Shown here: piece after piece, positions 1,742-46,720 of the stretch | Numbering within the stretch: the stretch's first letter is position 1 | How the letters are laid out: each line of letters starts with the position of its first letter | NCBI GenBank assembly: GCA_947258655.1 | Contig: CAMYJD010000021.1 | Coordinates: forward strand, 8,476-72,475 | Length of the DNA stretch: 64,000 bases | Reading direction: 5' to 3' | Source: an uncultured Gammaproteobacteria bacterium | Lineage (GTDB): Bacteria > Pseudomonadota > Gammaproteobacteria > JAADHQ01 | Program-made: the position numbers and the translations under genes | The notes under the pieces: model-generated | What the model saw: only the letters and a program-made list of their open reading frames with translations | What the model was told of the DNA's origin: nothing | Databases searched by the model: none

Positions 1742-3403
1742 TTGACGAAATCACAGGAACAGCTGAACCTCGTTCGTAACTATCACGAACTGAGCAAACA
1801 CCAGCCTGGTAAATATGCAAAGGGACCTGATTCTCTGGACTGGGACATGCAACCCGACCCGTTCAGGGAATTCCAGGCATGCAAGCGCATCGCCTTGCCA
1901 CTGACAGCAAATCAGCTCGAACACACTCTGGGAGACATACTGACTCCCAGCAACGTTGCCACACAAACCTTCAGCAAGGAAAGCATCGGGCAGTTACTGG
2001 AAGTTTCAATGGGCCTGAGTGCATGGAAAGTCTACGGCAGTGACCGCTGGTCACTTCGCTGCAATCCTTCCAGTGGAAACCTGCATCCAACAGAAACGTA
2101 TGTCATCACCAATACTATCAGTGATATGGAGTCGGGAGTTTATCATTACCAGAGTCATCAACATTGTCTTGAGCAACGCAGCGATCTGACTGTCAAACTG
2201 GAAATGCAGGAATCTATCCTGCCTCCGCAATGCATACTCATTGGATTGAGTTCCATTCACTGGCGTGAGAGCTGGAAATATGGTGTGCGCGCCTATCGTT
2301 ATTGCCAACTCGACCTGGGACATGCGATTGCATCTATTCGCTACGCAGCGGCACTGCAAGGCTGGAAAATCCACCTGATCAGGCAGGCCAGTGACAGACA
2401 GGTCTCACAGATACTGGGTATTGATCGGGAACAGGATTTCCACAACTGTGAGATGGAAACGGCTGATATTCTGTTATTAATTGACAGAAATGGGCAGACA
2501 GATCCCGCTTTACTGGACATGGAATGGATCGTAACAAAAATCCACACGAGTGAATGGAACGGTAGTGCAAACGTTCTGAGTCCGCATGGAAGAATGAAAT
2601 GGCCGGAAATTGATAAAGTCAGTGAGGCTTGCAATAAGCCTGCAACTACGCCAATGCCACTGATCAAGAAAAAATATAACTCAGTTAGCCATACACACAA
2701 GGATTTAAATGCATCACAATTACTGAGACAACGGCGTAGTGCACAGGCCTTTGATAGCCAGACAGAACTGCCCACAGAAGATTTTTACCAGATGCTATCC
2801 GCCATATCTACTGACCATCAAACCCTCCCGCTTGATTGCTGGAATGATGTCGCACACATCCACCCGGTATTCTACGTTCACCGTGTCAAGAATGTTGCGC
2901 CCGGCCTGTATGCCCTGCCTCGTTCGACTGTTGGCATGGCATTAATGCGGGAAAACTTTCGCGATCAGTTCGTATGGCAAAAACCTGAATCATGTCCAGA
3001 TGATATCCCCCTGTATATGCTTGTCAGAGCCAATTGTCGCAATGCTGCCAGGACACTGTCATGCCATCAGGATATCGCATCGGCCAGTGCTTTTTGCGTC
3101 AGCCTGCTGGCTGAGTTTGACACCGTGTTGACAGATTCTCCATGGAAATATCGTGATCTTTTTTATGAGGCAGGCGTTGTGGGCCAGGCACTGTATATTG
3201 AAGCTGAAGCTGCCGGCATCAGGGGAACCGGTATCGGTTGTTTCTTTGACGATACTATCCATGAAACCTTCGGCATTCAAAACCGCTCACTGCAGTGTGT
3301 GTACAATTTTACCGTTGGCATGCCGGTTGTGGATAATCGATTGATCAGTCTCCCGCCTTACAGTCATTTACAGGTACAATCAAGACACTTGCATAAACGA
3401 TGA
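1742..3403 (+). CDS. SagB/ThcOx-type two-domain nitroreductase-family protein
   Basis: 553 aa with a TTG start. NYHELSKH near the N-terminus and the RAQAFD / YxEAGxxGQxLYxEAxAxGxxGTGIGCFFDD C-terminal signature indicate nitroreductase-fold dehydrogenases. Confidence 0.7.
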   Translation: MTKSQEQLNLVRNYHELSKHQPGKYAKGPDSLDWDMQPDPFREFQACKRIALPLTANQLEHTLGDILTPSNVATQTFSKESIGQLLEVSMGLSAWKVYGSDRWSLRCNPSSGNLHPTETYVITNTISDMESGVYHYQSHQHCLEQRSDLTVKLEMQESILPPQCILIGLSSIHWRESWKYGVRAYRYCQLDLGHAIASIRYAAALQGWKIHLIRQASDRQVSQILGIDREQDFHNCEMETADILLLIDRNGQTDPALLDMEWIVTKIHTSEWNGSANVLSPHGRMKWPEIDKVSEACNKPATTPMPLIKKKYNSVSHTHKDLNASQLLRQRRSAQAFDSQTELPTEDFYQMLSAISTDHQTLPLDCWNDVAHIHPVFYVHRVKNVAPGLYALPRSTVGMALMRENFRDQFVWQKPESCPDDIPLYMLVRANCRNAARTLSCHQDIASASAFCVSLLAEFDTVLTDSPWKYRDLFYEAGVVGQALYIEAEAAGIRGTGIGCFFDDTIHETFGIQNRSLQCVYNFTVGMPVVDNRLISLPPYSHLQVQSRHLHKR

Positions 3404-7916: not shown

Positions 7917-8822
7917 CTAAAGCGTCAGGCATACCAACGATTTCAAGGTACAAGCTTCGATAACTGGCAACACGATGACAACATTGCCTTCTTCGCGATC
8001 ATCACTGGAAACCAGGGGACGCCCCGTCAGCCAGGCATCACCCACCGGACCCTGACCTTTACTGATTTCGGTATGCGCATACTTCAGTGCCAGATCTGCA
8101 CCCGATGAACAATGTCCCGAGTCAAAATACAGAGACTGTTTTTCTTCATCTCGTATCCAGACCTCAAAACGTTTAGCAATAGGTGAACCTTTTGCTGATA
8201 GCAATGTGAGGATACGAATATCCGGTTCCGTAAGACTGACGGGTATTGCCAGTCCTGTCGTGATCCCAGCCTCAGCTGCATTGCGTGCCCGTAAAAATGC
8301 ATTCGAGTTCCCAAGGTCATCAATCATGATTGGCTTACCCTGCTCCCACGCGGCCCCCGGTAAACCACGACCGCGCATGATACTGAGTTTACGGGAGACC
8401 CATTCAAACCGCTCTAATTCACCGTAATAACCATCGACCAGTTTTAATTCGCTATTGCTGCCATTGTTGTTCTCCCACAATTCCAGAGCACCGACAGAAT
8501 CTTTACCACCGCCACAAAAAAGAATGACAACAGCTTGCAGAAATTCGCCACAAAAGACTGGTATTGAGATTCCACAGAAAATACCTGCCTGAGTAGCTGC
8601 CTCGGCTCGTTGAAAATAATTAGCGGTAAGATCAGTCAGGACAATCGGCTCCCCTTGTGCCCACGTTTTACCAGGTAAGCCGTGATCGAAGTCGAAGACC
8701 ATAGCTTCACTGGCTTTTTTAAATTCCTCCAAATCACCATAGTAAGACGAACCAAGGACCAGGCTCATGCCACGGGTACTACTGGGGACCCAAATCTCAA
8801 TTGCCTTTACAAACTGTTGCAA
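7917..8822 (-). CDS. Tandem GAF-like domain protein
   Basis: 301 aa with an internally repeated module (LPG..W..G.P....DL......R...A...GI..G..IPV) seen at least twice. Confidence 0.55.
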   Translation of the reverse strand: MQQFVKAIEIWVPSSTRGMSLVLGSSYYGDLEEFKKASEAMVFDFDHGLPGKTWAQGEPIVLTDLTANYFQRAEAATQAGIFCGISIPVFCGEFLQAVVILFCGGGKDSVGALELWENNNGSNSELKLVDGYYGELERFEWVSRKLSIMRGRGLPGAAWEQGKPIMIDDLGNSNAFLRARNAAEAGITTGLAIPVSLTEPDIRILTLLSAKGSPIAKRFEVWIRDEEKQSLYFDSGHCSSGADLALKYAHTEISKGQGPVGDAWLTGRPLVSSDDREEGNVVIVLPVIEACTLKSLVCLTL

Positions 8823-9042: not shown

Positions 9043-9408
9043 TCATATCTTCACTCGCTTGTCGTTAAACCAGATACCCTCCTCATCTTCGATGACTCTT
9101 ACTGATGTCAATCTCTCCCCATTACACATTGTACTCACTGACTCCCCCGTCCTCGGCTCATATACAATACCGTGCATTGAGCAACGTAAATACTGTCCAG
9201 TCTCATCAAATATCATATCTCTTTCACAATCAAGTTCACGTGGCATATGAACACACTGGTTTTTGTATGCCAGGCATTGTCCTTTATACCTGAACAGCAG
9301 TACGGATGTAGGATAGCCAGCGTAAGTAACATCTATACGCATATAATGTCCATCCAGTAGCTTGTCACTGGCACTGATCCATATTCGTCTGTCTTTAGCT
9401 GCTATCAT
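9043..9408 (-). CDS. Rieske [2Fe-2S] domain protein
   Basis: 121 aa with CVH...(17 aa)...CSMHG Rieske ligands. Confidence 0.75.
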   Translation of the reverse strand: MIAAKDRRIWISASDKLLDGHYMRIDVTYAGYPTSVLLFRYKGQCLAYKNQCVHMPRELDCERDMIFDETGQYLRCSMHGIVYEPRTGESVSTMCNGERLTSVRVIEDEEGIWFNDKRVKI

Positions 9409-9435
9409 ACTGATTATATTCAGACAATAAATCTT

Positions 9436-10068
9436 TTATACAACAGTGTACCCTTCCTCGGCCAAAATTTGCCTCACGGCAGGTCGATCAAGCATTTTAT
9501 GGTAGTGACGCATGCATGCTTCGGGTAGTTTAAAATCTGTTTTATCAGCCCAGAATTCCACATAGAACAGCGCAGCATCGGCTATCGAGAAAGCGTCAGT
9601 CACATAAACATTGCCGCTTAGCATGCCGTCTATATATGCAAGCCCTGCGTTGACTATTGCCCTGCCCTGTTGCTTGACCCAATCATGATCCGACACATTC
9701 GGTGTGAATTTATCGGTGGTAAAAATACGCGCAAATCCCTGCATGTGGATAGTACCAATGACATAGCTCATCACCTCCAGCACCTTGACCTCTTCTTCTG
9801 CATTATCCGGCAACAGCTTGCTTTGCGGATATTGACGTGCAAGCCACCAGGCTATCGCCTGGAATTCTGTTAAAACTGAACCATCATCACGCACCAGTAC
9901 AGGAATAGTTGCCTTGGGATTCATTTTCAGGAATTCAGGCTGTTGATGGTCACCAGCAAGCAGATTAACAGGATAGCATTCGAAAAGAATATCCAGTTCT
10001 TGCAATAGAATATGGATTCCTGTCGAGCAGGAACCTGGTGTCATATAAAATTTTATTGTCATACTCAA
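9436..10068 (-). CDS. Glutathione S-transferase family protein
   Basis: 210 aa. It has an N-terminal thioredoxin-like GST domain (NP...IPVL..DDG..L.E..AI..WL) and a helical C-terminal domain. Confidence 0.85.
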   Translation of the reverse strand: MSMTIKFYMTPGSCSTGIHILLQELDILFECYPVNLLAGDHQQPEFLKMNPKATIPVLVRDDGSVLTEFQAIAWWLARQYPQSKLLPDNAEEEVKVLEVMSYVIGTIHMQGFARIFTTDKFTPNVSDHDWVKQQGRAIVNAGLAYIDGMLSGNVYVTDAFSIADAALFYVEFWADKTDFKLPEACMRHYHKMLDRPAVRQILAEEGYTVV

Positions 10069-10422
10069 TCAGCCAAAAAGACCATCACGCAGCATTGCCT
10101 TATATTTTTTCATCACGGGTTTTGGTATTTTTTCTTCCGCATAAAGTCGTAACGTATGTATACGTTCCTGTATGGCAGGGCCGGGCTGTCGTCGTGCCTC
10201 AGCGATAGCCTGGTGTGCCTGTGAATCAAATAACACGCCAGTACCGTCCTCTACTACATCATAGATTTGCATAATCGCAGCCTTTTCCCCGGCTAACATC
10301 TTGCACTTGCCATCGAGTATCTTAAGGACGACTGCCGTCGTGCAATCAATGGCAGTCGTATCAAAGACCTGTTCTGCGGCCCATTCAGATGCCGGATGTG
10401 TTATACCCGAATCGGCTAACAT
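10069..10422 (-). CDS. Hypothetical protein
   Basis: 117-aa ORF abutting the GST start codon, in-operon. No recognised motif. Confidence 0.5.
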   Translation of the reverse strand: MLADSGITHPASEWAAEQVFDTTAIDCTTAVVLKILDGKCKMLAGEKAAIMQIYDVVEDGTGVLFDSQAHQAIAEARRQPGPAIQERIHTLRLYAEEKIPKPVMKKYKAMLRDGLFG

Positions 10423-10435
10423 AGGGTTAATTTAC

Positions 10436-10627
10436 CTAATAGCACAATACACTCTGCAAAAATTTACTGCCGTGTTTTTCCTCGTGCGCTTTCAGATAGG
10501 CATCCAGTAACTCCTGTTCAGCACATTCCCCCAGCTCACGCATGACAGCAAGCCTGATATCGGCATCCATCAAACCACTTACAATATCAAACTCCATGGT
10601 CATACCATTGAATGTAATATCGACCAT
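10436..10627 (-). CDS. Hypothetical small protein
   Basis: 63-aa ORF, 13 nt from the next gene. No recognised motif. Confidence 0.4.
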   Translation of the reverse strand: MVDITFNGMTMEFDIVSGLMDADIRLAVMRELGECAEQELLDAYLKAHEEKHGSKFLQSVLCY

Positions 10628-10676
10628 TATCGGTTCCCCCCAAATCTTAAAGTAAATTAAACCCCGTCAAGATCCA

Positions 10677-12368
10677 CTAGTATTCCATACCACGGAACAT
10701 GGAACAGCGTTTGTAAACATCGAGTAGCGGCAATGTGTTTTTGTGTTGACAGAACTTGGCCACCAGTTTGGTCAACCCCTTGATATCGCGACCAGTTGCT
10801 TCGGGAAACAGGTCAACCAGTTCATCTATTAGTGTATCTCCAACATCCAGTGAGAACTGCTTACTCATCACCTGCCATATCTTGCGACGCTCTTGCTGAT
10901 TGGGGGGATGGTATTTAATCATTGCTATACAACGCGAGATTATGGCTTCATCGATATCATCAGCACGATTTGTAGTCAGAAACAACAGTCCGTTAAAATA
11001 TTCCAGTACACGCAAAAAAACACCGACCACTGCATTCGCGGCAATATTATCATCGCGTCGCTTGATATAGACATCGGCCTCATCGATCAGCATCACGGCA
11101 CCCCAACGTTGCGCACGAGTCAACGTGTCCTTCAATGCATTTTCCATCTCGGCAACGTTCAGACCCAGTTGTCCCGAATGCACCCGGTACAGGGGCCGCT
11201 TGATAATCTCCGAGTAGACTTCCGCAGTCAGCGTTTTTCCGACACCTGCAGGCCCCGCACATAATACGGTTGTACCACCGGATTTCCCAGCAACGATATC
11301 ATCCATCAGCACATCCATTTCTGCCGTCAGGATATCTATCAGGTCTGTGTGTTCCTCTGGAAGGATCAGTTTGTCCTTGAGTGCCGGCATGTACCGATAG
11401 GGCTTGATATCATCCACATGCACCCATAAGTGATGGTGCAATTCCAGATGAAACATCAGGATATAGGCATGAACAGGTAACTCGGTAAACATGCCCTTCG
11501 GGATATTCTCCCTGGATGCCTCTACCCTGCTTTCAACCTTCTCATCGTATCGTGTGCTCTTGCCGGCTTTACGCAAATAGGTACTGAGGATTTCCCCTGA
11601 ACCTTCAAAACCAAGCACTCTTGCACCCAGAATATTTTCGTCATTAACCAATCGAGCGTTATTTCCGCTGGATGACAGAACAACTATGTTTTTACGTGAC
11701 CAGTCTGTATTGCGATGCGACGCAGTGGGATCTTCCGCATAATAACCGGTACCTTTCCCTGAAAACTGTTTTCCATACTCTGCACGCCAGGAAAAATAGC
11801 GTTCACTGGCTTCATCATAAGCGTGAATCAATTCACGGGTTTCTTTTAAATAGCCCTTGTGTGCAAATATCTCACTCAGGGTCCTGCCATCAATATCCCT
11901 GCTACGAATAATTATATTCTCTATGGCGATCTTGCCGCGAGAGTTTGCTTTAATTTCAAGCAGGATACGTCCCGACTCTTCTTCACCCGGCGGCGAATAA
12001 TCCAACCTGGTTATGACATAAGCAATGGGTTTGGCCGATGTATTGGCCCTGAAAAGCCAGCCACGTATACCGCCTTCCAGCAGGTATTCTGCAATGGCAG
12101 AGATCAACAGCTCAAGATCATCAGCGCGATAACGCTGTTGGTCTTCATTCAAGGCTTTCTGTAATGTACTGATTTGAGCAGCTCGCGCCTGCATGCCGGG
12201 GCCGGCCTGCTCGTATATATTTTGCAAATAGGCCAGTTCCTGGTGAGACAGCTGATTAAATGTAACTTCGGCATGATTACCAAAACGCAACTGCTCCTTC
12301 AGAACAGTCAGATCAGGGAACTGTTCAAGCATAATGTCGATATAGGGACGTTCAATTTGTAGCTTCAT
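10677..12368 (-). CDS. AAA+ ATPase with a large uncharacterised N-terminal region
   Basis: 563 aa. The C-terminal classical AAA module has Walker A GPAGVGKT, Walker B MLIDEAD and second region of homology TTNRADDIDEAIISR. The first ~330 aa have no recognisable motif. Confidence 0.85.
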   Translation of the reverse strand: MKLQIERPYIDIMLEQFPDLTVLKEQLRFGNHAEVTFNQLSHQELAYLQNIYEQAGPGMQARAAQISTLQKALNEDQQRYRADDLELLISAIAEYLLEGGIRGWLFRANTSAKPIAYVITRLDYSPPGEEESGRILLEIKANSRGKIAIENIIIRSRDIDGRTLSEIFAHKGYLKETRELIHAYDEASERYFSWRAEYGKQFSGKGTGYYAEDPTASHRNTDWSRKNIVVLSSSGNNARLVNDENILGARVLGFEGSGEILSTYLRKAGKSTRYDEKVESRVEASRENIPKGMFTELPVHAYILMFHLELHHHLWVHVDDIKPYRYMPALKDKLILPEEHTDLIDILTAEMDVLMDDIVAGKSGGTTVLCAGPAGVGKTLTAEVYSEIIKRPLYRVHSGQLGLNVAEMENALKDTLTRAQRWGAVMLIDEADVYIKRRDDNIAANAVVGVFLRVLEYFNGLLFLTTNRADDIDEAIISRCIAMIKYHPPNQQERRKIWQVMSKQFSLDVGDTLIDELVDLFPEATGRDIKGLTKLVAKFCQHKNTLPLLDVYKRCSMFRGMEY

Positions 12369-12386
12369 TGGCTTTACCGATACTCT

Positions 12387-12689
12387 CTACTGTGCTTCAC
12401 TGGCACATCCCTGGCTGTCGAATACCAGCGTGCGTGGCATCTCATCGCCTTCTAACAGTATTGCCTTTTCCAGCACACCTTGCTGGTTATACTCATAATG
12501 ATGAATGAATTCGATTTCGCCATAGACGACCTTCTCAATGATTTTTACACGATCATGATCGTCATAATAGGCCTTGAAATAAGTAATTCGGTTATCCAGT
12601 CCATCACTATCCAGCTCATTGACCAGTAGCAATGGTAATTTTATCCCGGTATAGGAAATAAAATAACGACAGTTTGATTCAGATTCCAC
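12387..12689 (-). CDS. Hypothetical protein
   Basis: 100-aa ORF overlapping the upstream NifX-like gene by 11 nt. Confidence 0.5.
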   Translation of the reverse strand: MESESNCRYFISYTGIKLPLLLVNELDSDGLDNRITYFKAYYDDHDRVKIIEKVVYGEIEFIHHYEYNQQGVLEKAILLEGDEMPRTLVFDSQGCASEAQ

Positions 12690-13038
12690 TTATCCTGTCT
12701 CCGTCATTTGTTATATAGTCCAGTAGCGATGGTTCTATTTCCTCCCAGGCATATTGTGAAACTGCCGTTATCCCGCGTTGCGCCAGTTTTTCTGACGGAC
12801 TATCACCAATCTTGGCGACAAATACGGCATTACAGTCCTTGATAGATTCAAGAATACCGCTCAATGCACTTTTATCTGAGTGGCCACCAAGACAGTAATG
12901 ACTCACCTCACGTTTCTCCAGTAATTGACATACCTGATTTGTCACTTCATAAATAAAAAATTGTTTCGCATGACCAAAATGTTCACTAATAGCCAGTCCT
13001 TCCTTGCTGGCAACAGCAATACGCGTGACACATCTCAT
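12679..13038 (-). CDS. NifX/NifB-C-terminal-like dinitrogenase cofactor-binding domain protein
   Basis: 119 aa. IAVAS......SEHFGHAK.F.IYEV is the hallmark opening of the NifX/NafY/NifB-C domain. Confidence 0.8.
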   Translation of the reverse strand: MRCVTRIAVASKEGLAISEHFGHAKQFFIYEVTNQVCQLLEKREVSHYCLGGHSDKSALSGILESIKDCNAVFVAKIGDSPSEKLAQRGITAVSQYAWEEIEPSLLDYITNDGDRISGI

Positions 13039-14411
13039 ACCGGCAAGGCCTCGTCAAGCAGCACCGCAAGATGTACCGATGAGCGTTGCACTCCTTCGCT
13101 AATCTGATGGCGACAGGAAAAACCATTGGCGACTACACGTGCGTCCGGCGTTTTCCTGAGCGCTGGTAATAATGCATCTTCTGCCATTTGCATGGAGATA
13201 TCTGCGTGTTCTTTTTCGATGCCGAAACTACCGGCCATGCCACAACAACTGGCTTCTATGATTTCAAACTTCAGTTCCGGTATCATTTTTAATACCTTAC
13301 GCATGGACTTCATCGCGCCCACTGCCTTTTGATGACAATGACCATGTACCATTAGGGGCACATCTGTATTGATGGATTCAAAATTCAGCTTGAAACGTTT
13401 AGCCTGTGTTTCCCTTGCGATAAACTCCTCGAACATAACGGCATGACTGGCCACCTTGTCAACAGCAGCACCCAGATCGAGAAATTTATAGTCATCACGT
13501 ATAGCCAGCAGGCAGGATGGTTCAAGTCCAATAATCAGTCGACCCGCTTCGACGTGAGGCAACAATGCTTCCAGCATTCGATAGGCATTTTTTCTGGCTG
13601 CTTCTACCAGACCATGAGCCAGTTGCGTGCGACCGCAACATAATGGCGGGTTGGCATCAACATGGTCGGGATTATGATCTACGATGTGGACGACGTACCC
13701 CGCCTTGTTCAGAACACGAATCGCCGCTTCGGCGTTTTCAGGACAGAAATTATTGGTGAAGGTATCCAGCAACAACGCCACTTCACCAGCAAGCGGCAGG
13801 TCATTAATGATTTGCTGAGGGTGACTTGTTTTGTTTACGTGTCGTTTTTCGAAGCTGTGCTGTGCTAATTCCGGTAATTTACGTTTTGCACTCAGTCCCA
13901 GCAACAACTCTGCGAGGCGTGATAACAGCCGCGAACGGTTCAGAACAGTAGGCAGGTATCTGAAACAACCGTAGTACTGCAAATTGGCTGACAGGTTGGC
14001 CAGAAGTCGTGTGCGCAAGCTTGGCTTGCTGTGCAGATAATGCTGGGCAAGATACTCGATCTTCATCATGGACATATCGACTTCACTTTCGCACTCGCGT
14101 TTACAGCCTTTACAGGCCACGCAAAGGTCCATTGCATCTGCCAACATAAGATCAGTAAACGGTGAATCACCCAGACCACCATTCAATGCGGCCTTCAATA
14201 AACGTATGCGGCCGCCTGTCGAGTACGGAACCTTACCAGTCACTCGAAAGCTGGGACACATGACACCCTTGCGCTTTTCTTCGCAGCGATGACTATTGAT
14301 ACATACAGAAACAGCCCTGGCGAAATCACCGCCTGTCTTCGGGATATCGGCATAGGCATCGCCCATACCTGCATCCCGGTAAGCCGTCCAGTCGAGAAAG
14401 GTTTTCATCAC
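13035..14411 (-). CDS. (Fe-S)-binding oxidoreductase with CCG domains (GlcF/HdrD/GlpC-like)
   Basis: 458 aa. Two 4Fe-4S-like Cys clusters (C..SHRCE....MCP; CVACKGCKRECE) and two CCG-type motifs (LEPSC......; HGHCHQKA; ASCCGMAGSFG). Confidence 0.8.
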   Translation of the reverse strand: MMKTFLDWTAYRDAGMGDAYADIPKTGGDFARAVSVCINSHRCEEKRKGVMCPSFRVTGKVPYSTGGRIRLLKAALNGGLGDSPFTDLMLADAMDLCVACKGCKRECESEVDMSMMKIEYLAQHYLHSKPSLRTRLLANLSANLQYYGCFRYLPTVLNRSRLLSRLAELLLGLSAKRKLPELAQHSFEKRHVNKTSHPQQIINDLPLAGEVALLLDTFTNNFCPENAEAAIRVLNKAGYVVHIVDHNPDHVDANPPLCCGRTQLAHGLVEAARKNAYRMLEALLPHVEAGRLIIGLEPSCLLAIRDDYKFLDLGAAVDKVASHAVMFEEFIARETQAKRFKLNFESINTDVPLMVHGHCHQKAVGAMKSMRKVLKMIPELKFEIIEASCCGMAGSFGIEKEHADISMQMAEDALLPALRKTPDARVVANGFSCRHQISEGVQRSSVHLAVLLDEALPV

Positions 14412-14422
14412 TTGAGGCCGTA

Positions 14423-14983
14423 TTAGACTGCCCCCCAGGCTTCACGTACGATATCTTCAGTTGACGCCATTGCCTCATCCAGTGTCACTTGCGGATATTT
14501 CGGATCGTAGCTTTGCATTTCAGTATACAAGGTCAGTATCTTGTCAGCTGGCGACTGTCCTTTGAAATCACTCTTTTCAAGTGCCAGTTCATCAATAATC
14601 TCATTCCATGGCACACCCTGGGTCAAAGGAATGAACACAAACTTGAAGCCATCGATGTCCACCTGCATCGGATCCTTGATATTGACAACGAAAAATACGT
14701 TCTTTATGTCTGCTGCAAAGTCTTCCTTGTACTTATTGATAAAAGTCTGGACGGATTCCAGCTTATCAATTGCGCCAATGACCATATTTAACTTGTTATC
14801 TGCTAACATCGTGACACCGCGGACAACATCGAGCGGAGGTTTGGCATGACCTTTTGCGTCCGCTGCCTCGCCTTCAACCAGTACAAGCTCACCGCGATAA
14901 CCATACATTGAGCCATCGCTCGTCTGCTCCAGGAAATTGGAATTGAACAGTAAACCACTGTCTTTATATTTTGCTAATGGCAC
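14423..14983 (-). CDS. Hypothetical protein, first gene of the sigma-54 operon
   Basis: 186-aa ORF with a GTG start preceded by GAGGG. No recognised motif. Confidence 0.6.
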   Translation of the reverse strand: MPLAKYKDSGLLFNSNFLEQTSDGSMYGYRGELVLVEGEAADAKGHAKPPLDVVRGVTMLADNKLNMVIGAIDKLESVQTFINKYKEDFAADIKNVFFVVNIKDPMQVDIDGFKFVFIPLTQGVPWNEIIDELALEKSDFKGQSPADKILTLYTEMQSYDPKYPQVTLDEAMASTEDIVREAWGAV

Positions 14984-15022
14984 GTCTTGACCCTCATTAA
15001 ATTTTCACTCTGTTTTTTACAG

Positions 15023-15038
15023 GGCAATATTCATACCA
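15023..15038 (-). promoter_or_regulatory. Sigma-54 promoter (TGGTAT-N5-TTGCC) for the 14983->9043 operon
   Basis: Minus strand reads TGGTATGAATATTGCC with GG-N10-GC spacing, 40 nt upstream of the GTG. Confidence 0.5.
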
Positions 15039-15112
15039 CAACAAGGACAAATTAAAATACAAATAAAAACAGTATATTAGAGTTTTGCGTAACAGATATC
15101 GCAATGATTATT

Positions 15113-15128
15113 TGTAATGAACACGACA
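15113..15128. promoter_or_regulatory. NifA-type UAS shared by divergent promoters
   Basis: TGTAATGAACACGACA lies 75-90 nt from the minus-strand -24 and about 95 nt from the plus-strand -24. Confidence 0.55.
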
Positions 15129-15221: not shown

Positions 15222-15237
15222 TGGTTTGATTCTTGCT
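15222..15237 (+). promoter_or_regulatory. Sigma-54 promoter (TGGTTT-N5-TTGCT) for orf140-nifF
   Basis: GG-N10-GC spacing. It lies inside the annotated 15204 ORF extension, which argues for the ATG at 15291. Confidence 0.5.
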
Positions 15238-15290: not shown

Positions 15291-15713
15291 ATGAGTCTTT
15301 ATATCAGTATCAATACTGCCAGTTCATCGCTTTCTGACAGTCCGATTGATCAGGCCATTACATTCCTGGCCGCACATGCCGCTATTGAGAAACAACATGG
15401 CCGACTGCCGGGTGGACCATCACTGGATGTTACGTTTATGTTACCAGGCGAACATGAATCACCCTCTTTCGTCGGTATGCGCATGGGGGGTTACACCAGA
15501 GAAAGCGAGACACTGTTTTTTGAAACAGCCGTGCCTGAACATATCCTGAAGTCCCCGGAAGCCACACGCTATGTTGCTGTGGTTATGCAGGATGTCGTTG
15601 AACATGCACATGAGTTCTTTAGCGAGAATAATGTCAAATTTGATACACAGCACTGGCGCAAGACCATCGAGAACCTGACCAGACCGGAACAGGCCATCAG
15701 AGTGGCGCATTAG
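15291..15713 (+). CDS. Hypothetical protein
   Basis: 140 aa from MSLYISIN, with GGAGGA 8 nt upstream. No recognised motif. Confidence 0.55.
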   Translation: MSLYISINTASSSLSDSPIDQAITFLAAHAAIEKQHGRLPGGPSLDVTFMLPGEHESPSFVGMRMGGYTRESETLFFETAVPEHILKSPEATRYVAVVMQDVVEHAHEFFSENNVKFDTQHWRKTIENLTRPEQAIRVAH

Positions 15714-16330: not shown

Positions 16331-17284
16331 TTAATGCCTGGCATCCCACAGGCGTTTGAAATGACTATCCAGTTTTGACAGCTCGGAATCCAGCGTCAAC
16401 AAATCTGCTTTACCGGGAAAACGTCCCGCCATATTGGCGGCGTACCAGGATTCCATTTCACGCTTCTTCTGTTCACGACGGTATACCGTGTCAGATATGG
16501 CCGTTTTGATCCAGCCCATTTCCCTTGCGCCCAAATCTGCCACACAATACTGGACACCTGTGTCAAAGATCCTGGTTCCACCTCCTTCGGCTATCGTTGC
16601 CTTGAGAGCAACAGGATCGGTAACCCTTACTCCGGCAAGATAGTCCACCCCAAACTCTTCCAATTCAGCTATCCAGGGTGTAGTTGGCCCCATTAAGACC
16701 AGGTTGGCATCCTGGGAAAGTTCAGCCAGACGCTTGAATGTCTTGTTCACGATGGAGGTCGAAGTCAGAAAGACCCAGTCGGCATCGCGTAAAACATATT
16801 CTGCAGCCGTATCAGGCAAATCTCCCGGGGACGGTTGGCGCTCCACAACCGTATAATCTATCCCGGATAGGCAATGATCCAGGCCGGGGTAGCGGCCGAT
16901 CACGACCACCCGTTTCCCCTGCAATTGATTTCGAAAATATTCGAAGACAGCCAGGTTAGCAGGCCCTTCCGGCTTCAGAACCTGTGCATCTTCCAGTAAA
17001 TTGCTGGACTGGTTCAATACAGAGTTAATGACTGACATACCTATAGTGGATTTATACGGATTCCAGTCTCGGATCCAGGCAGCCACTTCACTGGTCTTTC
17101 TGCCTTGCAAGGTTCCCGGCCATTCCAGTGTACGGCTTGAGAGTCCATTTCCATTTACCGGACTCATACACAAACCTATCCCTTCCGACCTGCAATAAGT
17201 CCAGGTAAGCCCGAGAACAACTTCTTCGATGCTTTGCTCATCCGGCAGAGCATCCAGTAAAAGATCATAGATTTCTTCCTTCAC
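16331..17284 (-). CDS. DUF4213/DUF364 Rossmann-like putative metal-chelation protein
   Basis: 317 aa. The N-terminus (V.LGL.WT......G.GL.MSP) followed by V.VIG..PG resembles the DUF4213+DUF364 architecture, plus a ~70-aa C-terminal extension. Confidence 0.6.
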   Translation of the reverse strand: MKEEIYDLLLDALPDEQSIEEVVLGLTWTYCRSEGIGLCMSPVNGNGLSSRTLEWPGTLQGRKTSEVAAWIRDWNPYKSTIGMSVINSVLNQSSNLLEDAQVLKPEGPANLAVFEYFRNQLQGKRVVVIGRYPGLDHCLSGIDYTVVERQPSPGDLPDTAAEYVLRDADWVFLTSTSIVNKTFKRLAELSQDANLVLMGPTTPWIAELEEFGVDYLAGVRVTDPVALKATIAEGGGTRIFDTGVQYCVADLGAREMGWIKTAISDTVYRREQKKREMESWYAANMAGRFPGKADLLTLDSELSKLDSHFKRLWDARH

Positions 17285-20133: not shown

Positions 20134-20622
20134 CTATTCCTCCCAGCCTTCCGCTTCCATATCATCAAAACGGTTCGGGTTTGAAGGCTTTTGTGATTCA
20201 ATGGCACGTGCTAGCCATGTTCCCGGACCTGAGGCCATCTCTTCCTGAAGAGACTCAAGCAAGTCGCTGATACTTGCACCGGCGCTAACCTTGACCGGCT
20301 GAATACCTCTAGCCTTGAGCTGGCCAACAGCCGATGCACCCACTGCCTGGGAATACACTGCGATACAACCTTCCAATGCATCCAGTTTCACCGTTAGCTT
20401 GTCTTCATTACCATCCTGATCAAGCTGTCCAAACTGTATTGCTTCCAGCAGACTGGTCTTTTCCATGTCAATGGCATAAACAGCAAAGGCCTCGGCAGAA
20501 CCAAAATGCTGGTTCACATGTTTCATATCTGTGGTCGCAAACGCTACCTTCAGAGCAGTATTCAAACTGTCCTCGCTAGTGTCGGAATCCACGATCTTCA
20601 GATGTCTCTGATGTTGTGTCAT
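20134..20622 (-). CDS. nifX: NifX
   Basis: [26 protein letters not shown] opening of the NifX domain. I chose the ATG at 20622, which overlaps the nifN 3' end by 47 nt; the exact start is uncertain. Confidence 0.85.
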
Positions 20623-21991
20623 TCTGATACTCCGGCTTCTGTGCATATATAGAACGATATGGATGAATTTCACCGCGTTCGAGTGTCAACAAGGTATTGG
20701 CCAGGTCGAAAAGGGTCTGTCGTGTTCCCTGATAACCAATCCAGACCCGTTGATAGCCACCAAGCAGATCATATTGAGGAAAACCGGCACGTAATAATGG
20801 CAAACCCAGTCTCCTCGAAGATTCGACTGCATGTGAATTACTGATGATCATTTCGGCTGCATTTGTTCTGGCCAACTTTTCCATTTCTTCAAGATCACCA
20901 ATGCTAACTTTTTCTGCTGCCAGTTTTTTCAATGCGGGAGCATTGACAGGTGCTACAGCTGCTACGGTTTCGCCTCCCATCGAGGCCAGCAGATGTGAAA
21001 AGGCATTCAATAGATCAGGGTCAGCAGCAATCGCAAATCGAGTCATACCGAGCATAAAATGCGTATCCAGCATTGCATCCTGTAACTGGGCACGACTGCG
21101 TTCTAATTTTTCCGGGACCTCATTACCGCTGATCTCGACCAGGGCATTAACAAATTCGTCTACAGCATCCAGGCCCATCAGATGATCAAAACGCCAGTCC
21201 GGAACACCGGTGCGCTTGTTTAGCAAATCGGCCGACTTGAACATGGAAGTGCCAATGACAACAGTAGCTGTCGAGTCACCCAGATTCGCAAACTCGGATA
21301 CTGATGTGCCGCCAATCGTCAGCGGACTGAAATCCTGTTCTGCCAGGTGTCCATCGAGTGAATCAGAGAGATCCGGAATCACTAATGGTCTAAGCCCGAA
21401 CGATTCGATCATCTCCTTGATAGCTTCAAGGTCTCCTGGAGTGTGAGAAGAACCGGCAAGGACCGTTACTTGCCGATGCCTCTTACCGGGTTTGGTACCT
21501 GCCTTTTCTGCCTCTGGCACCAACACATCAATCATCGCCTCTGTCGCCAGGGCAAAACCGGTTTCGAGACAGCCTGTGAAATCCGGAGTCGAGACCGGAA
21601 TACAGGGAACATGATCGTACTCAGGATACTTTTCCCGGAACATCCCGATTGCCATTTTTATATCACTACCCTGTGTTTCTGCCAGCCCGGTAGTAGGTAC
21701 ACCGATCAGATCGGGCTTGGTTTTCTCACAGATGGTTTTCAAGCCTTCAACGACATTATCATCAGAACCCATCACCGAACTGACCTGATCCATAGCTGTG
21801 GTTTGCAATGGTATCGGCTCACGGAAATGCCTGACAAAGAAGACCTTGCCAAAAGCTGTACAACCCTGTGACCCGTGCAACATTGGCATCGACCGGTGAA
21901 AACCCAGAAAGGCCAGCGCAGCTCCAATAGTCTGACTTGATTTCAGTGGATTGACTGACAATGCCTTTTTACGCTTCAGTATCTCTACCAT
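20576..21991 (-). CDS. nifN: NifN, FeMo-cofactor biosynthesis scaffold subunit
   Basis: 471 aa. LSVNPLK.S...GA.LA.LG......L.HG.QGCT start. Follows nifE with a 2-nt gap. Confidence 0.95.
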
Positions 21992-26579: not shown

Positions 26580-27290
26580 TCAACCCTCCGCTTCACTACG
26601 TTCAAATCTGACCCGGTCCTCAGCATTCTGCCCCATTACTTTTGCCAGCCACGGTGGCGGCGTTCCTGAAATAATATCCTGTAGTGCCTGCATTCTTTCT
26701 CTGGCAGGACCACCAGAAGGATATTTGATTGGATGGATGCCCGCCCTGACAACCTTGGCAGCAGCAGGTCCGCCTATTGATACAACAAACAGGACCTGAC
26801 AGTCGCTTACCAGATTTGTACGAAAAACATTCTTGTCATCACGAGATTCCGGACCGGTTGCGTTACGTGCATCAATCAGACGTATCTCTTCCTTACTGAC
26901 CTGGTAGATCAGAAATCGCTTACAGGAACCAAAATGCCCGTCCAGCTCTTCATCTTTGTTAGATGCACAGGCTATTCGTAATGAACCCGGCATATCGCCA
27001 TTTTCATATGCGTCGAAATCCGGAAGCGAATCCTGCAACACTTCGTCTGCATTTCCGGATAATATTTGCAACGCATTTTTCAGTGAGTCGGTATCAATAC
27101 CCGAGAATTCACCATCACATGCCTGCCGAAGGGATTTTAATTTCAGGCTTGCGAGTTTTTTACTGGTAGGAGGAAGACCCACCGCATCATCCAATACTTT
27201 GATCAAACGTGCTGGATCAGTATCCGGCAGAACGCGTGATGCAAGCGCGATACGGAGTGCAATCTCTTTTGATATTGGTGTACTACTCAT
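26580..27290 (-). CDS. nifY: NifY/NafY-type FeMo-cofactor carrier
   Basis: 236 aa. N-terminal NafY-N domain (ALRIALASRVLPD.DP..L..VL), linker, and C-terminal NifX-like domain (HFGSCKRFLIYQV). Confidence 0.85.
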   Translation of the reverse strand: MSSTPISKEIALRIALASRVLPDTDPARLIKVLDDAVGLPPTSKKLASLKLKSLRQACDGEFSGIDTDSLKNALQILSGNADEVLQDSLPDFDAYENGDMPGSLRIACASNKDEELDGHFGSCKRFLIYQVSKEEIRLIDARNATGPESRDDKNVFRTNLVSDCQVLFVVSIGGPAAAKVVRAGIHPIKYPSGGPARERMQALQDIISGTPPPWLAKVMGQNAEDRVRFERSEAEG

Positions 27291-31114: not shown

Positions 31115-32001
<887 letters not shown>

Positions 32002-43396: not shown

Positions 43397-44962
43397 CTAT
43401 ATCTGCCGCATCTTAATATTCAATGTTTGAATACGATAGGCAATCTGCCTGGGCGTCATGTCCAGTAGCCTTGCTGCTTTTGCCTGCACCCAACCCGCCT
43501 CTTCGAGGGCTGCAATAACACGTTCCCGCTCGTCGAGGGATGGATCATTAAAATCTATTTTTTCGACTGACTGGGGAGTATCCCTGGGCAGAAGCTTGTC
43601 ATCGAGTCCAGTTAGATTAATGGCCTCCCGGTCGATATTCCCTTCTTCACACATAATCGCCGCTCGCTCAAGACAGTTTTCCAGTTCACGAACATTGCCG
43701 GGCCAGTCATATCGCATCAATTGACGAATCGCACTGTCTTTGAGCATCAACGTCCTGTCCTGCTGACGAGCTATCTTGTCAACAAGAAAGCATGCCAGAT
43801 CAGGAATATCCTCGACGCGCTCACGCAAGGGTGGCATATCGATGGGCATTACATTCAGTCTGTAATAAAGATCTTCCCTGAAATTGCCATTTTCAACTTC
43901 TTCTTCGAGATCGCGATTTGTTGCCGCGATTACTCGCACGTCGACATTCAGCGTTTGCAAACCGCCAACGCGTTCAAACTCTCCTTCCTGTAGCACACGT
44001 AATAGTTTTGCCTGGAATGCTGGCGAGATCTCGCCGATCTCATCAAGAAATATTGTGCCTCCATTTGCCTGCTCAAACCTGCCTTTTCTTTGACTGACTG
44101 CCCCGGTAAAGGCACCCTTCTCATGACCGAAGAGTTCGGATTCCAGCAAATTATCTGGCAATGCAGCGCAGTTCAGTTTTACGAAAGCACCACTGGCGCG
44201 CGGTGAGTTATAGTGAATCGCATTGGCAATCAGCTCTTTACCTGTACCCGATTCACCTCTGATCAGTACTGTCGTGTTCCATTTAGCTACCTGACGAATC
44301 TGTTCAAAGATACGTCGCATAACAGGAGTATGGCCAATGATACTGTCAAAACCATGTTCTGCCTTGACCTCACGTCTGAGATCATCACGCTCGGCCTTCA
44401 GGGCCATTCTCTCGACTTCAACTGTTTTCGACAGACGTACTGTCTGTCCAATCAGGTTTGCCGCCATCTCCAGGAAATGAGCCTGCTCCTCGAGAAAATC
44501 AATATGAGGTGGTTGCGCAGCCAGAACTCCTGCGGGCTTACCTGATTCACCTATCATGATTGGAACGCCAATAAAAGGCAGCTCCTGATCATAGATACCC
44601 AGGCGATCCAGGAACCTGGCCTCGTCGGAAATTCGCTCGACGACCACAGGTTCTCTCGCTTGCATGATCGTGCCGATAATGCCTTCCCCGGATCGGTAAC
44701 GGACATCATCACTGATTTCAATCTTGTCATTATGTAGTGCACTGACCATCAGCTCACCACTGTCTTCATCAAACAATGTTACTACACCATGCGTCAGCTT
44801 TCCCCGGTCATGCAACAACTTCAATACTTCCTTCAATGTGTTATGCAAATCCAGGGAACGACTGAGTACCGCACTGACCTCGTAAAGTGTATTTAATTCT
44901 GCCTCTACCAGGGTAAGGCGATTCATTTCCGGTTCAGTAGTATTCATTAATGCATTACTCAT
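43397..44962 (-). CDS. nifA: NifA, sigma-54-dependent nif transcriptional activator
   Basis: 521 aa. N-terminal GAF, central AAA+ (GESGTGKE, GAFTGA, ELFGHEKGAFTGA) and C-terminal HTH (AKAARLLDMTPRQIAYRIQ). Confidence 0.95.
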   Translation of the reverse strand: MSNALMNTTEPEMNRLTLVEAELNTLYEVSAVLSRSLDLHNTLKEVLKLLHDRGKLTHGVVTLFDEDSGELMVSALHNDKIEISDDVRYRSGEGIIGTIMQAREPVVVERISDEARFLDRLGIYDQELPFIGVPIMIGESGKPAGVLAAQPPHIDFLEEQAHFLEMAANLIGQTVRLSKTVEVERMALKAERDDLRREVKAEHGFDSIIGHTPVMRRIFEQIRQVAKWNTTVLIRGESGTGKELIANAIHYNSPRASGAFVKLNCAALPDNLLESELFGHEKGAFTGAVSQRKGRFEQANGGTIFLDEIGEISPAFQAKLLRVLQEGEFERVGGLQTLNVDVRVIAATNRDLEEEVENGNFREDLYYRLNVMPIDMPPLRERVEDIPDLACFLVDKIARQQDRTLMLKDSAIRQLMRYDWPGNVRELENCLERAAIMCEEGNIDREAINLTGLDDKLLPRDTPQSVEKIDFNDPSLDERERVIAALEEAGWVQAKAARLLDMTPRQIAYRIQTLNIKMRQI

Positions 44963-44967
44963 TCGCT

Positions 44968-46608: not shown

Positions 46609-46720
46609 AATTACTACCTCGATTAAATCGCATCTGTTTGAATTAAAGGCAAGAATCATTCCCAACATCAGAAAGTGCGATAAAACAACGGTGACAGGTC
46701 TCGAATCCGACTGATATAAA

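Follow-up and report, generated by a model that had tools for sequence, protein, structure and literature searches.

A predicted nif-regulon operon centred on an AAA ATPase of a phage and megaplasmid family

Relation to described systems

ClpX2 of the Azotobacter vinelandii nif cluster is a nif-linked AAA+ unfoldase that affects the levels of NifB and NifEN, and to our knowledge no other nif-cluster AAA+ ATPase is established as acting on Nif proteins. CbbX and CbbQ/CbbO (Rubisco), NorQ/NorD and CoxD are metalloenzyme activases, that is, ATP-driven remodellers encoded beside the enzyme that they maintain. The 563-aa ATPase described here has the concept in common with these activases, but it presented no match to CbbX/SpoVK or MoxR (AAA_5) models, has no VWA partner and carries an unrelated N-domain; its "SGQLG" segment presumably occupies the position of the CbbX G-Q-Y-I-G pore loop, as compared by eye. 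It belongs to a different AAA+ clade from ClpX2, with no ClpX model among its NCBIfam matches, and lacks the zinc-binding N-domain, the aromatic pore loop and the ClpP-docking loop of that protein. The first-pass annotation knew of no described nif function for such an ATPase, and we found no description of it in the published literature. As far as we know, the family is absent from the classical Klebsiella and A. vinelandii nif clusters; if so, nitrogenase as such can do without this gene.

Operon organization and promoter elements

The window, which is the whole 64,000-nt stretch of gammaproteobacterial DNA analysed here, contains, as the first-pass annotation had described, nine tightly packed minus-strand ORFs from 14983 to 9043; their gaps or overlaps are at most 49 nt. 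A sequence scan inside the cluster revealed no convincing terminator and no convincing internal sigma-54 site, and the next gene on the minus strand, encoding a GAF protein (7917–8822), follows after a gap of 220 nt. The cluster is surrounded by a large nif island with nifU, modABC, fldA, fdxN, nifX, nifEN, nifHDK, nifB, nifLA, rnf and draG, in which nifA and nifL occupy 43397–46668, the canonical nifX 20134–20673 and a NifY-like gene 26580–27290.

The promoter elements that had been reported ahead of the cluster were recovered. A sigma-54 −24/−12 element, TGGTAT-N5-TTGCC (TGGTATGAATATTGCC; 15038–15023, minus strand), lies some 40 nt before the first gene, which has a GTG start. The NifA-type UAS, TGT-N10-ACA (TGTCGTGTTCATTACA; 15128–15113, minus strand), precedes the minus-strand −24 element by 74 nt and a plus-strand sigma-54-like site (TGGTTTGATTCTTGC; 15222–15236) by 93 nt; the latter site faces the o169-flavodoxin genes. 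Because of its distances to both sigma-54-type sites, this UAS is apparently common to two divergent promoters. Since the plus-strand element falls within the longest-ORF call for o169, the true start of this gene is probably the ATG near 15291. The operon UAS (TGTAATGAACACGACA) is similar to those before iscA (TGTAACAAATACGACA), modA (TGTAGCAAATGCGACA) and nifE (TGTAGTATTTACGACA).

The motif TGG-N8-TTGC occurs 27 times in the window, against 13.3 expected. Pairs, defined as this motif with a TGT-N10-ACA 40–140 nt upstream, numbered 10; in 200 Markov resamples their mean number was 0.47 and the highest was 3. Six of the pairs were mapped to genes, in front of iscA-nifU, modA, a 139-aa ORF, the AAA operon, nifE and nifH, and all six lie at nif operon starts; the pair of the AAA operon matches those of iscA-nifU, modA, nifE and nifH in form and spacing. 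The operon is thereby predicted to be a transcription unit of the nif regulon, dependent on NifA and sigma-54 in vivo.

The AAA ATPase

The ATPase ORF (10677–12368, minus strand) encodes an N-domain of about 345 aa (11334–12368) and a C-terminal AAA module (10677–11333), with the AAA domain PF00004 at residues 368–481 and the motifs GPAGVGKT, MLIDEAD and TTNRADDIDEAIISR. Walker A K378, Walker B D429/E430, N467, R479 and R527 are invariant in the ATPase, and Walker A, Walker B, the sensor-1 residue N467 and R479 remain invariant across 38 diverse family members. The aromatic pore-loop-1 residue is absent throughout the family, which presents a conserved HSGQLG at this place. As threading unfoldases use such an aromatic residue, the mode of action of the ATPase may differ from that of classical remodellers, and the earlier designation of the protein as "unfoldase-type" is doubtful.

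These features bear on a turnover or regulatory role, in which the ATPase would tune nitrogenase levels by inactivating Nif proteins or regulators or by passing them to a protease, with ClpX2 of the A. vinelandii nif cluster as the analogue in role. The PF00004 type of the AAA module agrees with such a role, as does the label "ATP-dependent protease" of the phage relatives in PHROG 29662, and the conserved C-terminal motif C-x-x-FRG-[LMI] could serve as a docking element. However, the C-terminus has no HbYX or IGF-type docking motif, the aromatic loop for threading is missing, neither the operon nor the set of recurrent neighbours includes a protease domain or gene, and the phage label is without domain support. 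We regard this role as unlikely.

Spread and linkage to nif genes

Relatives of the ATPase were found in 469 GTDB species (E <= 1e-3), and the loci of the 80 best were inspected. Among loci of at least 15 kb, 39 of 48 have canonical nif/rnf genes within 10 kb. In locus L167 the order nifH-nifD-nifK-AAA is directly adjacent; in L050, L068 and L072 the gene adjoins a divergent nifHDK; and in the plasmid of Methylococcus sp. EFPC2 it is located between nifV/nifW/grxD/BolA and GST/Trx/Rieske/SelO. Copies with no nif genes nearby (L016, L032, L045, L046, L052, L059 and L074) are preceded by TGGC-N8-TTGC/CTGC and TGT-N10-ACA, and CCG-SelO-AAA operons with sigma-54/UAS motifs were observed in L012, L013, L015 and L065. 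Under the strict motif definition 11 of 74 operon fronts gave a match, compared with a rate of 1.2% in random 330-nt windows. Both nif genes and the promoter motifs are missing from at least two long loci (L053 and L058). Taken as a whole, these data make it probable that the ATPase genuinely belongs to the nif regulon and takes part in nitrogen fixation. Its conservation in hundreds of diazotrophic bacteria makes it a good candidate for a so far unstudied helper of nitrogenase.

Phage and plasmid ancestry

The whole ATPase, N-domain included, is a member, at 30–42% identity, of a family found typically in large phages and on megaplasmids. The AAA ATPase of the Bacillus jumbo phages AR9/PBS1 is 39% identical over residues 24–562, PHROG 29662 matches the full length (E 2.4e-113), and homologs in the same identity range occur in 165 IMG/VR viral contigs and 156 PLSDB plasmid records. 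The PHROG 29662 and AR9/PBS1 proteins have the same architecture, with an N-domain of about 330 aa, the AAA module and the C-terminal FRG motif, but the phage and plasmid copies are without conserved neighbours and without assigned function, whereas those of nif type make up a clade of their own, tightly conserved and located in nif clusters with NifA-type promoter motifs. The N-domain had no fold match in the PDB. Its model matched N-terminal regions of giant-virus AAA ATPases (Klosneuvirus, Terrestrivirus, Homavirus and Mimivirus LCMiAC01) among the predicted structures of BFVD, with probability 1.0, E-values from 1e-6 to 1e-4 and TMq of 0.34–0.40, although identity is 10–13% and the structural overlap is partial.

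Such relatives raise the reading of a passenger gene, a phage or plasmid remnant spread horizontally with nif islands and without a nitrogen-fixation role. Every relative sampled outside the nif-type clade is in phage or plasmid DNA (AR9/PBS1, the 165 IMG/VR contigs, 156 of 157 PLSDB records and four phage-like metagenome contigs), and a gene of the AcrIC5 family adjoins the ATPase. On the other hand, the 80 best relatives are 68–83% identical across three proteobacterial classes (64% in L167), which implies purifying selection; the gene occupies many different positions in nif clusters, repeatedly with its own sigma-54/NifA-type promoter motifs; no other mobile-element genes lie alongside it; and the nif copies are a single clade, with a long stem. 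In addition, 82 viral or phage-like loci contained no homolog of any of the other eight proteins of the cluster. The phage and plasmid relatives that the first-pass annotation had taken as the sign of a passenger thus exist for the wider family, whereas the nif-type clade is in nif contexts. A passenger is very unlikely, and the ATPase is a captured gene of mobile-element type.

The AcrIC5-family gene (o63; 10436–10627, minus strand) encodes a 63-aa acidic protein that scored 58 bits against PF22147 (cut-off 27) and aligned with PDB 7yhr over residues 3–55, almost its whole length (E 1.3e-6). AcrIC5 is a small acidic anti-CRISPR that keeps type I-C Cascade from binding DNA (bioRxiv 10.1101/2025.06.06.658234). 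Unlike an anti-CRISPR gene of phage, o63 is in a nif operon and not beside an aca gene, it adjoins the ATPase in the closest relatives only, and its own relatives occur also in ordinary chromosomal contexts that are neither nif nor phage; anti-CRISPR activity is an unlikely role for it here. The same points weigh on a defence or counter-defence module, in which an IetA-like ATPase and an AcrIC5-like inhibitor would stand in the nif island by chance. The PADLOC IetA models do match the ATPase (46.9 bits), as does NCBIfam IteA (32 bits), but these matches cover the generic AAA module only, the IteA cut-off is 510, there is no IetS-type protease partner, and a defence system would have no reason to carry a NifA-type promoter. 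Such a module is most improbable.

Gene neighbourhood and proposed role

The first-pass annotation had proposed a nif-regulon accessory module of nine genes. The nif-type promoter, the nif-island setting and the linkage of the ATPase to nif genes in many species favour the nif-regulon part, but the nine genes are not conserved as a unit. In the closest relatives (L002 and L004) two separate units are seen instead, o186-CCG-NifX-like and AAA-o63-o117-GST, the ATPase having its own sigma-54/UAS; in more distant relatives the ATPase alone persists, and it is the sole constant member of the set. The commonest neighbours among 78 loci are the 186-aa protein (39/78) and NifX-like proteins (27/78), both counted within 4 genes of the ATPase, followed by rhodaneses (21 and 19), GST (12) and the CCG protein with SelO; Methylococcales present the fixed order o186-AAA-rhodanese-rhodanese/ankyrin-NifY-like. 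The NifX-like neighbours point to cofactor handling, and GST, SelO and CCG to thiol redox, although guilt by association is diffuse with such wide variation.

The 119-aa ORF (12679–13038, minus strand) encodes a stand-alone Nitro_FeMo-Co protein of the NifX/NafY/NifB C-terminal family (PF02579, 75 bits). It is a clear domain member but scored 54.5 against the nifX equivalog (cut-off 112), and comes in addition to the canonical nifX and the NifY-like gene. This protein and the Methylococcales order would suit a cofactor-trafficking motor acting on NifX/NafY/NifY-type carriers or NifEN, which would load or release NifB-co or FeMo-co, or strip the carrier from the apo-MoFe protein, with no particular link to oxidative damage. 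Nevertheless, many ATPase loci have no NifX-like gene nearby, such as nifHDK-AAA in L167 and CCG-SelO-AAA in L012 and L013, and since every nif cluster is rich in NifX-like genes, their proximity is weak evidence. We see this motor as a rather unlikely account.

The reading that we favour, a plausible one held somewhat short of an even chance, is that the ATPase remodels nitrogenase or cofactor-carrier proteins. One clade of the phage and megaplasmid family would have been captured by nif clusters and would now be under strong purifying selection in nif-bearing beta-, gamma- and zetaproteobacterial genomes. The functional core would be a ring-forming AAA ATPase that remodels or disassembles a nitrogenase-related protein complex at the expense of ATP, with the MoFe protein or its NifX/NifY-type carrier complexes as the favoured target, during maturation or after oxidative damage; the oxidative-damage version specifically is more tentative. 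Substrate choice may reside in the 345-aa N-domain, and probably also in the 186-aa partner, and the redox chemistry may come from variable co-travelling genes (GST, CCG oxidoreductase, SelO, rhodaneses, Rieske, thioredoxin and glutaredoxin).

That partner, o186 (14423–14983, minus strand), is the first gene of the cluster; in other genomes its counterpart, where it neighbours the ATPase, is usually the gene directly upstream. It had no Pfam, NCBIfam or PADLOC match and belongs to a family of 2798 members labelled "hypothetical proteins". Its AF2 model (pLDDT 91.5) had no significant PDB fold match, the best being McrC 6hz4_N (probability 0.85, TM 0.29). The protein is a candidate adaptor or substrate; as both it and the ATPase N-domain are unlike any solved structure, no particular substrate is indicated.

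The earlier CCG, NifX-like, AAA, GST and Rieske calls were sustained, but the five "unknowns" were reduced, as the 63-aa protein is of the AcrIC5 family and the 100-aa protein (12387–12689, minus strand) is DUF6156 (PF19653, 110 bits), found also in Methylococcales nif neighbourhoods and in the non-nif locus L169. The 117-aa protein (o117; 10069–10422, minus strand) had no Pfam or NCBIfam match; its gene is 3′ of the ATPase in the closest MAGs, and relatives at 40–43% identity occupy this position in Thiothrix, Ketobacter and another proteobacterial MAG. The 458-aa ORF (13035–14411, minus strand) encodes a GlpC/GlcF/HdrD-like protein with two [4Fe-4S] motifs and a CCG domain (Pfam Fer4_8, Fer4_17 and CCG), scoring 169 bits against the GlpC model, under its 278-bit cut-off; in Methylobacter and relatives the CCG gene is the first of the CCG-SelO-AAA operon, with its own sigma-54/UAS. 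The 210-aa ORF (9436–10068, minus strand) encodes a GstA-like glutathione S-transferase with GST_N and GST_C domains (100 bits against GstA, under the 198-bit cut-off), and GST genes are near the ATPase in Gallionella, Sulfuriferula, Methylocaldum, Ampullimonas, Zetaproteobacteria and the Methylococcus plasmid. The last ORF of the tight cluster (121 aa; 9043–9408, minus strand) encodes a Rieske [2Fe-2S] domain (PF00355, 32 bits), and some other loci also have a Rieske gene in the vicinity of the ATPase.

Organization of the nine-gene cluster

The nine ORFs are packed on the minus strand between positions 14983 and 9043, with gaps or overlaps of at most 49 nt, as the first-pass annotation had described, and Pfam and NCBIfam profile searches upheld most of its domain calls (CCG Fe-S, NifX-like, AAA, GST and Rieske). 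The first ORF (14983-14423) encodes a 186-aa protein, o186, with no Pfam or NCBIfam match; the second (14411-13035) encodes a 458-aa Fer4 and CCG Fe-S protein of GlpC/GlcF-like type; the third (13038-12679) encodes a 119-aa NifX/NifB-C-type protein, a stand-alone Nitro_FeMo-Co domain (PF02579); and the fourth (12689-12387) encodes a 100-aa DUF6156 protein. The fifth (12368-10677) encodes the 563-aa AAA ATPase, with PF00004 in its C-terminal third. It is followed by ORFs for a 63-aa AcrIC5-family protein (PF22147; 10627-10436), a 117-aa protein, o117, with no Pfam or NCBIfam match (10422-10069), a 210-aa GST (10068-9436) and a 121-aa Rieske protein (9408-9043); the DUF6156, GST and Rieske assignments come from the profile searches.

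Four products and the N-terminal part of the ATPase had been listed as unknowns. For o186, o117 and the first ~330 residues of the ATPase this description stands, as they have no Pfam or NCBIfam model; the 100-aa and 63-aa proteins belong to the DUF6156 and AcrIC5 families. The 119-aa protein scores 54.5 bits against the NifX equivalog TIGR02663 (cut-off 112) and is thus not NifX proper, belonging to the domain family PF02579 only. In the 458-aa protein two [4Fe-4S] motifs and CCG domain(s) were found, and every NCBIfam equivalog model stays below its own cut-off, GlpC among them (169.5 bits, cut-off 278), which places the protein at family level, among the GlpC/GlcF/HdrD-like CCG proteins. 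PDB sequence and profile searches with o186, o117 and the DUF6156 protein returned nothing apart from a weak match of the last to Tre23 (E 0.075); a stretch of this protein (12387-12689), HHYEYNQQGVLEKAIL, resembles a YD/RHS-type repeat.

Predicted promoters and the nif island

A sigma-54-type -24/-12 element, TGGTAT-N5-TTGCC (TGGTATGAATATTGCC; minus strand, 15038-15023), lies ~40 nt before the start codon of the operon, with its -24 GG and -12 GC elements at canonical spacing. The NifA-type TGT-N10-ACA site (TGTCGTGTTCATTACA; 15128-15113) is 74 nt upstream of it, and this activator site, TGTAATGAACACGACA, is similar to the sites ahead of iscA, modA and nifE. Promoters are identified throughout by sequence motifs. 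TGG-N8-TTGC occurs 27 times in the window against 13.3 expected. When a pair is defined as TGT-N10-ACA located 40-140 nt upstream of TGG-N8-TTGC on the same strand, the window holds 10 pairs, whereas 200 Markov resamples averaged 0.47 and never exceeded 3, so that the motif pair previously noticed ahead of the operon is beyond chance. Six pairs were mapped to genes, and they precede iscA-nifU, modA, a 139-aa ORF, the nine-gene operon, nifE and nifH.

A sigma-54-like element on the plus strand (15222-15236) faces the genes for the ORF o169 and flavodoxin, and has the same TGT-N10-ACA 93 nt upstream; a single NifA site (15113-15128) is therefore probably common to two divergent promoters, at 15038 on the minus strand and 15222 on the plus strand. 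Since the plus-strand element is inside the longest-ORF call of o169, the true start of this gene is probably the ATG near 15291. Inside the nine-gene cluster no convincing terminator or sigma-54 site was found; one transcript spanning all nine genes is plausible, though unproven.

The window is a single large nif island. It includes nifU and iscA (4-1347), modABC, flavodoxin, fdxN, a 2Fe-2S ferredoxin, a NifX-associated protein, nifX, nifN, nifE, a NifY-like gene, nifK, nifD, nifH, draG, nifB and rnf, and it encodes both nifA (705 bits) and nifL. The 3' end of nifH (31115-31221, minus strand) has an apparent 1-nt frameshift: the reading frame stops at ~31183, and the canonical C-terminus is picked up in a different frame at 31207 and ends with a stop at ~31115. 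Either the assembly is in error here or NifH is truncated. Two poorly characterised proteins are also encoded within the island, a SagB-type dehydrogenase (553 aa; 1742-3403) and a DUF364/DUF4213 'heavy-metal chelation' protein (317 aa; 16331-17284), and both are recurrent in the nif clusters of many related loci. In a 677-aa glutaminase (59506-61539) the catalytic domain is confined to residues ~370-675, with a second matched stretch, which implies either a long extension at the N-terminus or a domain duplication.

Distribution and genomic context of the ATPase

A survey of one genome per GTDB species revealed relatives of the ATPase at 469 loci. The best 80 of these 469, which were the loci inspected, present 68-83% identity over the full length, and belong to Methylococcales, Thiothrix, Thiohalomonadales, Oceanospirillales-type genera, Rhodocyclaceae, Gallionella, Sulfuriferula, Ferrovum and Zetaproteobacteria; identity is ~70% across methanotrophs, sulfur oxidisers and iron oxidisers. 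The identifiable carriers are, as far as is known, aerobes or microaerophiles. Cultured strains of Methylobacter, Methylovulum, Methylocaldum, Thiothrix and Ferrovum carry the gene, so knock-out, trap-mutant and pull-down work is feasible. To our knowledge the gene is absent from the nif clusters of the classical model diazotrophs, which, if so, would explain why it escaped notice.

Neighbourhoods were compared by mapping the window proteins onto the loci and by clustering all locus ORFs, which were called mechanically. Canonical nif or rnf genes occur within 10 kb of the ATPase in 39 of the 48 loci of at least 15 kb and NifA-type promoters recur, which bears out the link to nitrogen fixation first drawn from the window. 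In a metagenome contig (L167, 4860-10707) nifH-nifD-nifK is followed directly by a 64% identical copy of the ATPase gene, and a divergent nifHDK adjoins it in three other loci (L050, L068 and L072). On an 89.6 kb plasmid of Methylococcus sp. EFPC2 (L165), nifV, nifW, grxD and BolA are on one flank of the ATPase gene, and GST, thioredoxin, Rieske and SelO are on the other. The metagenome contig also carries a type I restriction-modification system downstream of the ATPase.

The nine-gene arrangement, proposed earlier as a unit, is not conserved, and gene orders differ between lineages. In the closest MAGs (L002 and L004) o186-CCG-NifX-like forms a convergent unit apart from AAA-o63-o117-GST, and the latter is preceded by sigma-54 and NifA sites of its own. 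The Methylococcales present the order DUF364 protein-o186-AAA-rhodanese-rhodanese/ankyrin-NifY-like, and Thiothrix presents TPR protein-AAA-(NifX-like)-o117; GST is near the ATPase in Gallionella and Sulfuriferula. Counted within four genes of the ATPase, its most frequent neighbours are o186 (39 of 78 loci), NifX-like proteins (27), two rhodaneses (21 and 19) and GST (12). Methylobacter luteus and relatives (L012, L013, L015 and L065) have a CCG-SelO-AAA operon with its own sigma-54/NifA-type promoter. SelO is a protein adenylyltransferase, which the Methylococcus plasmid also encodes close to the ATPase, and we know of no link between it and nitrogen fixation. In Methylobacter tundripaludum SV96 (L035, ~9855-10000), the ~150-nt spacer from the o186 homolog to the ATPase has a long inverted repeat, GCTGACAACACTGCCGG...CCCGTCAGTGTTGTACAGC, which might serve as a signal for processing or attenuation.

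With the strict sigma-54 motif, both promoter elements are present at 11 of 74 operon fronts; the sigma-54 motif occurs in 1.2% of random 330-nt windows. A scan with a slightly looser -12 element covered ATPase genes that are orphans, lacking nif genes in their vicinity (L016, L032, L045, L046, L052, L059 and L074), and these genes have TGGC-N8-TTGC/CTGC ~50-150 nt before the start and TGT-N10-ACA ~45-160 nt further upstream. The apparent retention of NifA-type signals wherever the ATPase gene sits is the strongest in-silico argument for its membership of the nif regulon. We consider it likely that the ATPase is a true nif-regulon gene.

Phage and plasmid relatives

Among 1.84 billion cluster representatives, searched exhaustively, 1727 matched at E <= 1e-30. 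Sequences of the nif type, the clade typical of nif clusters, correspond to essentially one 50% cluster, and many other inspected representatives have 520-600 aa. Among the best 150 representatives, 61 align over nearly the full length, including the N-terminal domain of ~345 aa (N-domain), at ~31-40% identity, and one more does so at 64%. PHROG 29662 matches residues 26-561 of the ATPase (E 2.4e-113) and the N-domain alone (E 1.6e-27). The jumbo Bacillus phages AR9 and PBS1 carry family members, as do 165 IMG/VR viral contigs in a full-length alignment scan (best full-length match 41% identical) and 156 plasmid records, mostly of large plasmids of Citrobacter, Klebsiella, Providencia, Paraburkholderia, Vibrio and Pseudomonas. 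All four sampled metagenome contigs with family members are phage-like in gene content. The phage-type ATPases have no conserved neighbour in 82 viral or phage-like loci, and the same loci hold no homologs of the other eight operon proteins. Longer relatives have no informative domain fusions beyond a LAGLIDADG intein, represented by a 913-aa phage-type relative (P0174) whose ATPase is interrupted by an intein-like LAGLIDADG homing-endonuclease insertion.

In a neighbour-joining tree all 18 nif-type sequences form one clade with a long stem, placed among mobile-element sequences. This suggests transfer of a virus- or plasmid-type ATPase into nif clusters; as the tree is rooted by midpoint only, the direction is suggested, not shown. 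The first-pass annotation had named orthologous clusters mostly outside nif contexts, for instance on plasmids or phage, as a possible sign of a passenger insertion. Phage and plasmid relatives do exist in the wider family at 30-42% identity; the nif-type ATPase is absent from the IMG/VR contigs, and the window, like most of the 80 nearest loci, is a nif cluster on a chromosome. That the ATPase is a passenger gene is very unlikely, as this fits poorly with its conservation, its variable positions within nif clusters and its NifA-type promoters.

Structural features of the ATPase

The ATPase matches PF00004 with 59.6 bits (cut-off 21.2) and presents Walker A (GPAGVGKT) and Walker B (MLIDEAD) motifs. 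Residues K378, D429, E430, N467, R479 and R527 are invariant in 38 diverse members; N467, the sensor-1 Asn, and R479, the arginine finger, are in the second region of homology, TTNRADDIDEAIISR. The aromatic pore-loop-1 residue of threading unfoldases is not conserved in any of these 38 aligned members, and the pore-loop-1 region, also compared in a HMMER alignment to Rix7, is instead HSGQLG-LNVAEME, with HSGQLG conserved. The earlier reading as a classical unfoldase-type ATPase is consequently doubtful, and such a mechanism is not to be assumed. A conserved C-x-x-FRG-[LMI] motif is located at or near the C-terminus; a HbYX-type protease docking motif is absent there. A comparison with CbbX/MoxR-type activases showed differences, as no CbbX/SpoVK or AAA_5 model is among the Pfam and NCBIfam matches of the ATPase and a VWA partner is not among its neighbours.

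The AlphaFold2 model of the N-domain (residues 1-345) is confident (pLDDT 80.6, pTM 0.78) and has no fold match in the PDB (best E 0.6); its matches in BFVD are AAA ATPases of giant viruses, at their N-terminal regions (probability 1.0, TMq 0.34-0.40). The o186 model, built on a less diverse alignment, is very confident (pLDDT 91.5) and has no significant match in the PDB, the best being McrC (TM 0.29), which was not relied on. The ATPase is predicted to be an ATP-driven machine with what appear to be novel substrate-recognition parts.

The IetAS/IteA defence system was rejected, since IteA scores 32 bits (cut-off 510), PADLOC IetA matches the AAA module only (46.9 bits) and the cluster has no IetS-type serine protease partner; PADLOC and PHROG scans showed only generic AAA similarity to defence systems. 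A defence module would also agree badly with the conservation, the changing positions within nif clusters and the NifA-type promoters, and we regard it as extremely improbable.

Proposed role in nitrogen fixation

The recurrent neighbours of the ATPase form two groups: NifX/NifY-type carriers with nifHDK genes, and proteins of thiol, sulfur and Fe-S redox (GST, CCG oxidoreductase, SelO, rhodaneses, Rieske, thioredoxin and glutaredoxin). Because of these two groups and of the aerobic or microaerophilic carriers, we favour, tentatively and at somewhat less than even confidence, a general role in remodelling the MoFe protein or carrier complexes, in maturation or after oxidative damage. The main rivals are a role purely in cofactor trafficking, which seems unlikely, and one in turnover, which seems less likely again.

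A specific form of the remodelling role, which we consider possible and rather doubtful, is that a domesticated virus- or plasmid-type ATPase became a dedicated 'nitrogenase activase' in proteobacterial nif clusters. In this form, recognition of the MoFe protein or its cofactor-carrier complexes would fall to the N-domain and the 186-aa partner, and the motor would act in the rescue or maturation of nitrogenase when cells are exposed to oxygen.

The factors that protect nitrogenase function under oxygen are incompletely known, and they limit the transfer of nitrogen fixation to new hosts. Since it is conserved, is repeatedly found beside nifHDK and NifX-like genes and repeatedly has NifA-type promoters, the ATPase is a strong candidate accessory factor for nitrogenase with oxygen present. 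If the activase form is true, biological nitrogen fixation would have a component that has so far escaped recognition, and at least 469 species genomes encode relatives of it. Because its apparent ancestry is in an ATPase family of phages, plasmids and giant viruses, a substrate found here could also explain the viral versions.

In public records the protein is named only 'ATP-binding protein', 'AAA family ATPase' (PGAP) or 'hypothetical protein'; it has no NCBIfam equivalog, and full-text searches of the literature turned up no description of the gene. Enzyme-linked AAA+ helpers are known, and the nif-linked ClpX2 is a precedent; new here is the ATPase family, together with the N-domain, the partner protein and the mobile-element ancestry. 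An AAA-ATPase gene between vnfH and vnfDGK of Azotobacter chroococcum was described with an altronate-dehydratase-like domain (PMC4465626), and it is probably unrelated, as the window ATPase has no such domain.

The AcrIC5-family protein

The 63-aa protein scores 58.2 bits against PF22147 (gathering score 27), covering all 53 profile positions, and matches PDB 7yhr (E 1.3e-6). A search with it gave at least 11 matches. Its genomic contexts are the nif operon and ordinary chromosomal loci, and these do not support a putative anti-CRISPR role on a mobile element. The small acidic protein is also encoded in two non-nif, non-phage chromosomal loci (L168 and L169). In L169 its gene adjoins that of a CCG/Fer4 protein 44% identical to the window copy, with no ATPase, and a DUF6156 gene (52% identical to the window copy) is nearby; the three families may be associated in their own right, and a widespread family of small bacterial proteins may be the source of AcrIC5.
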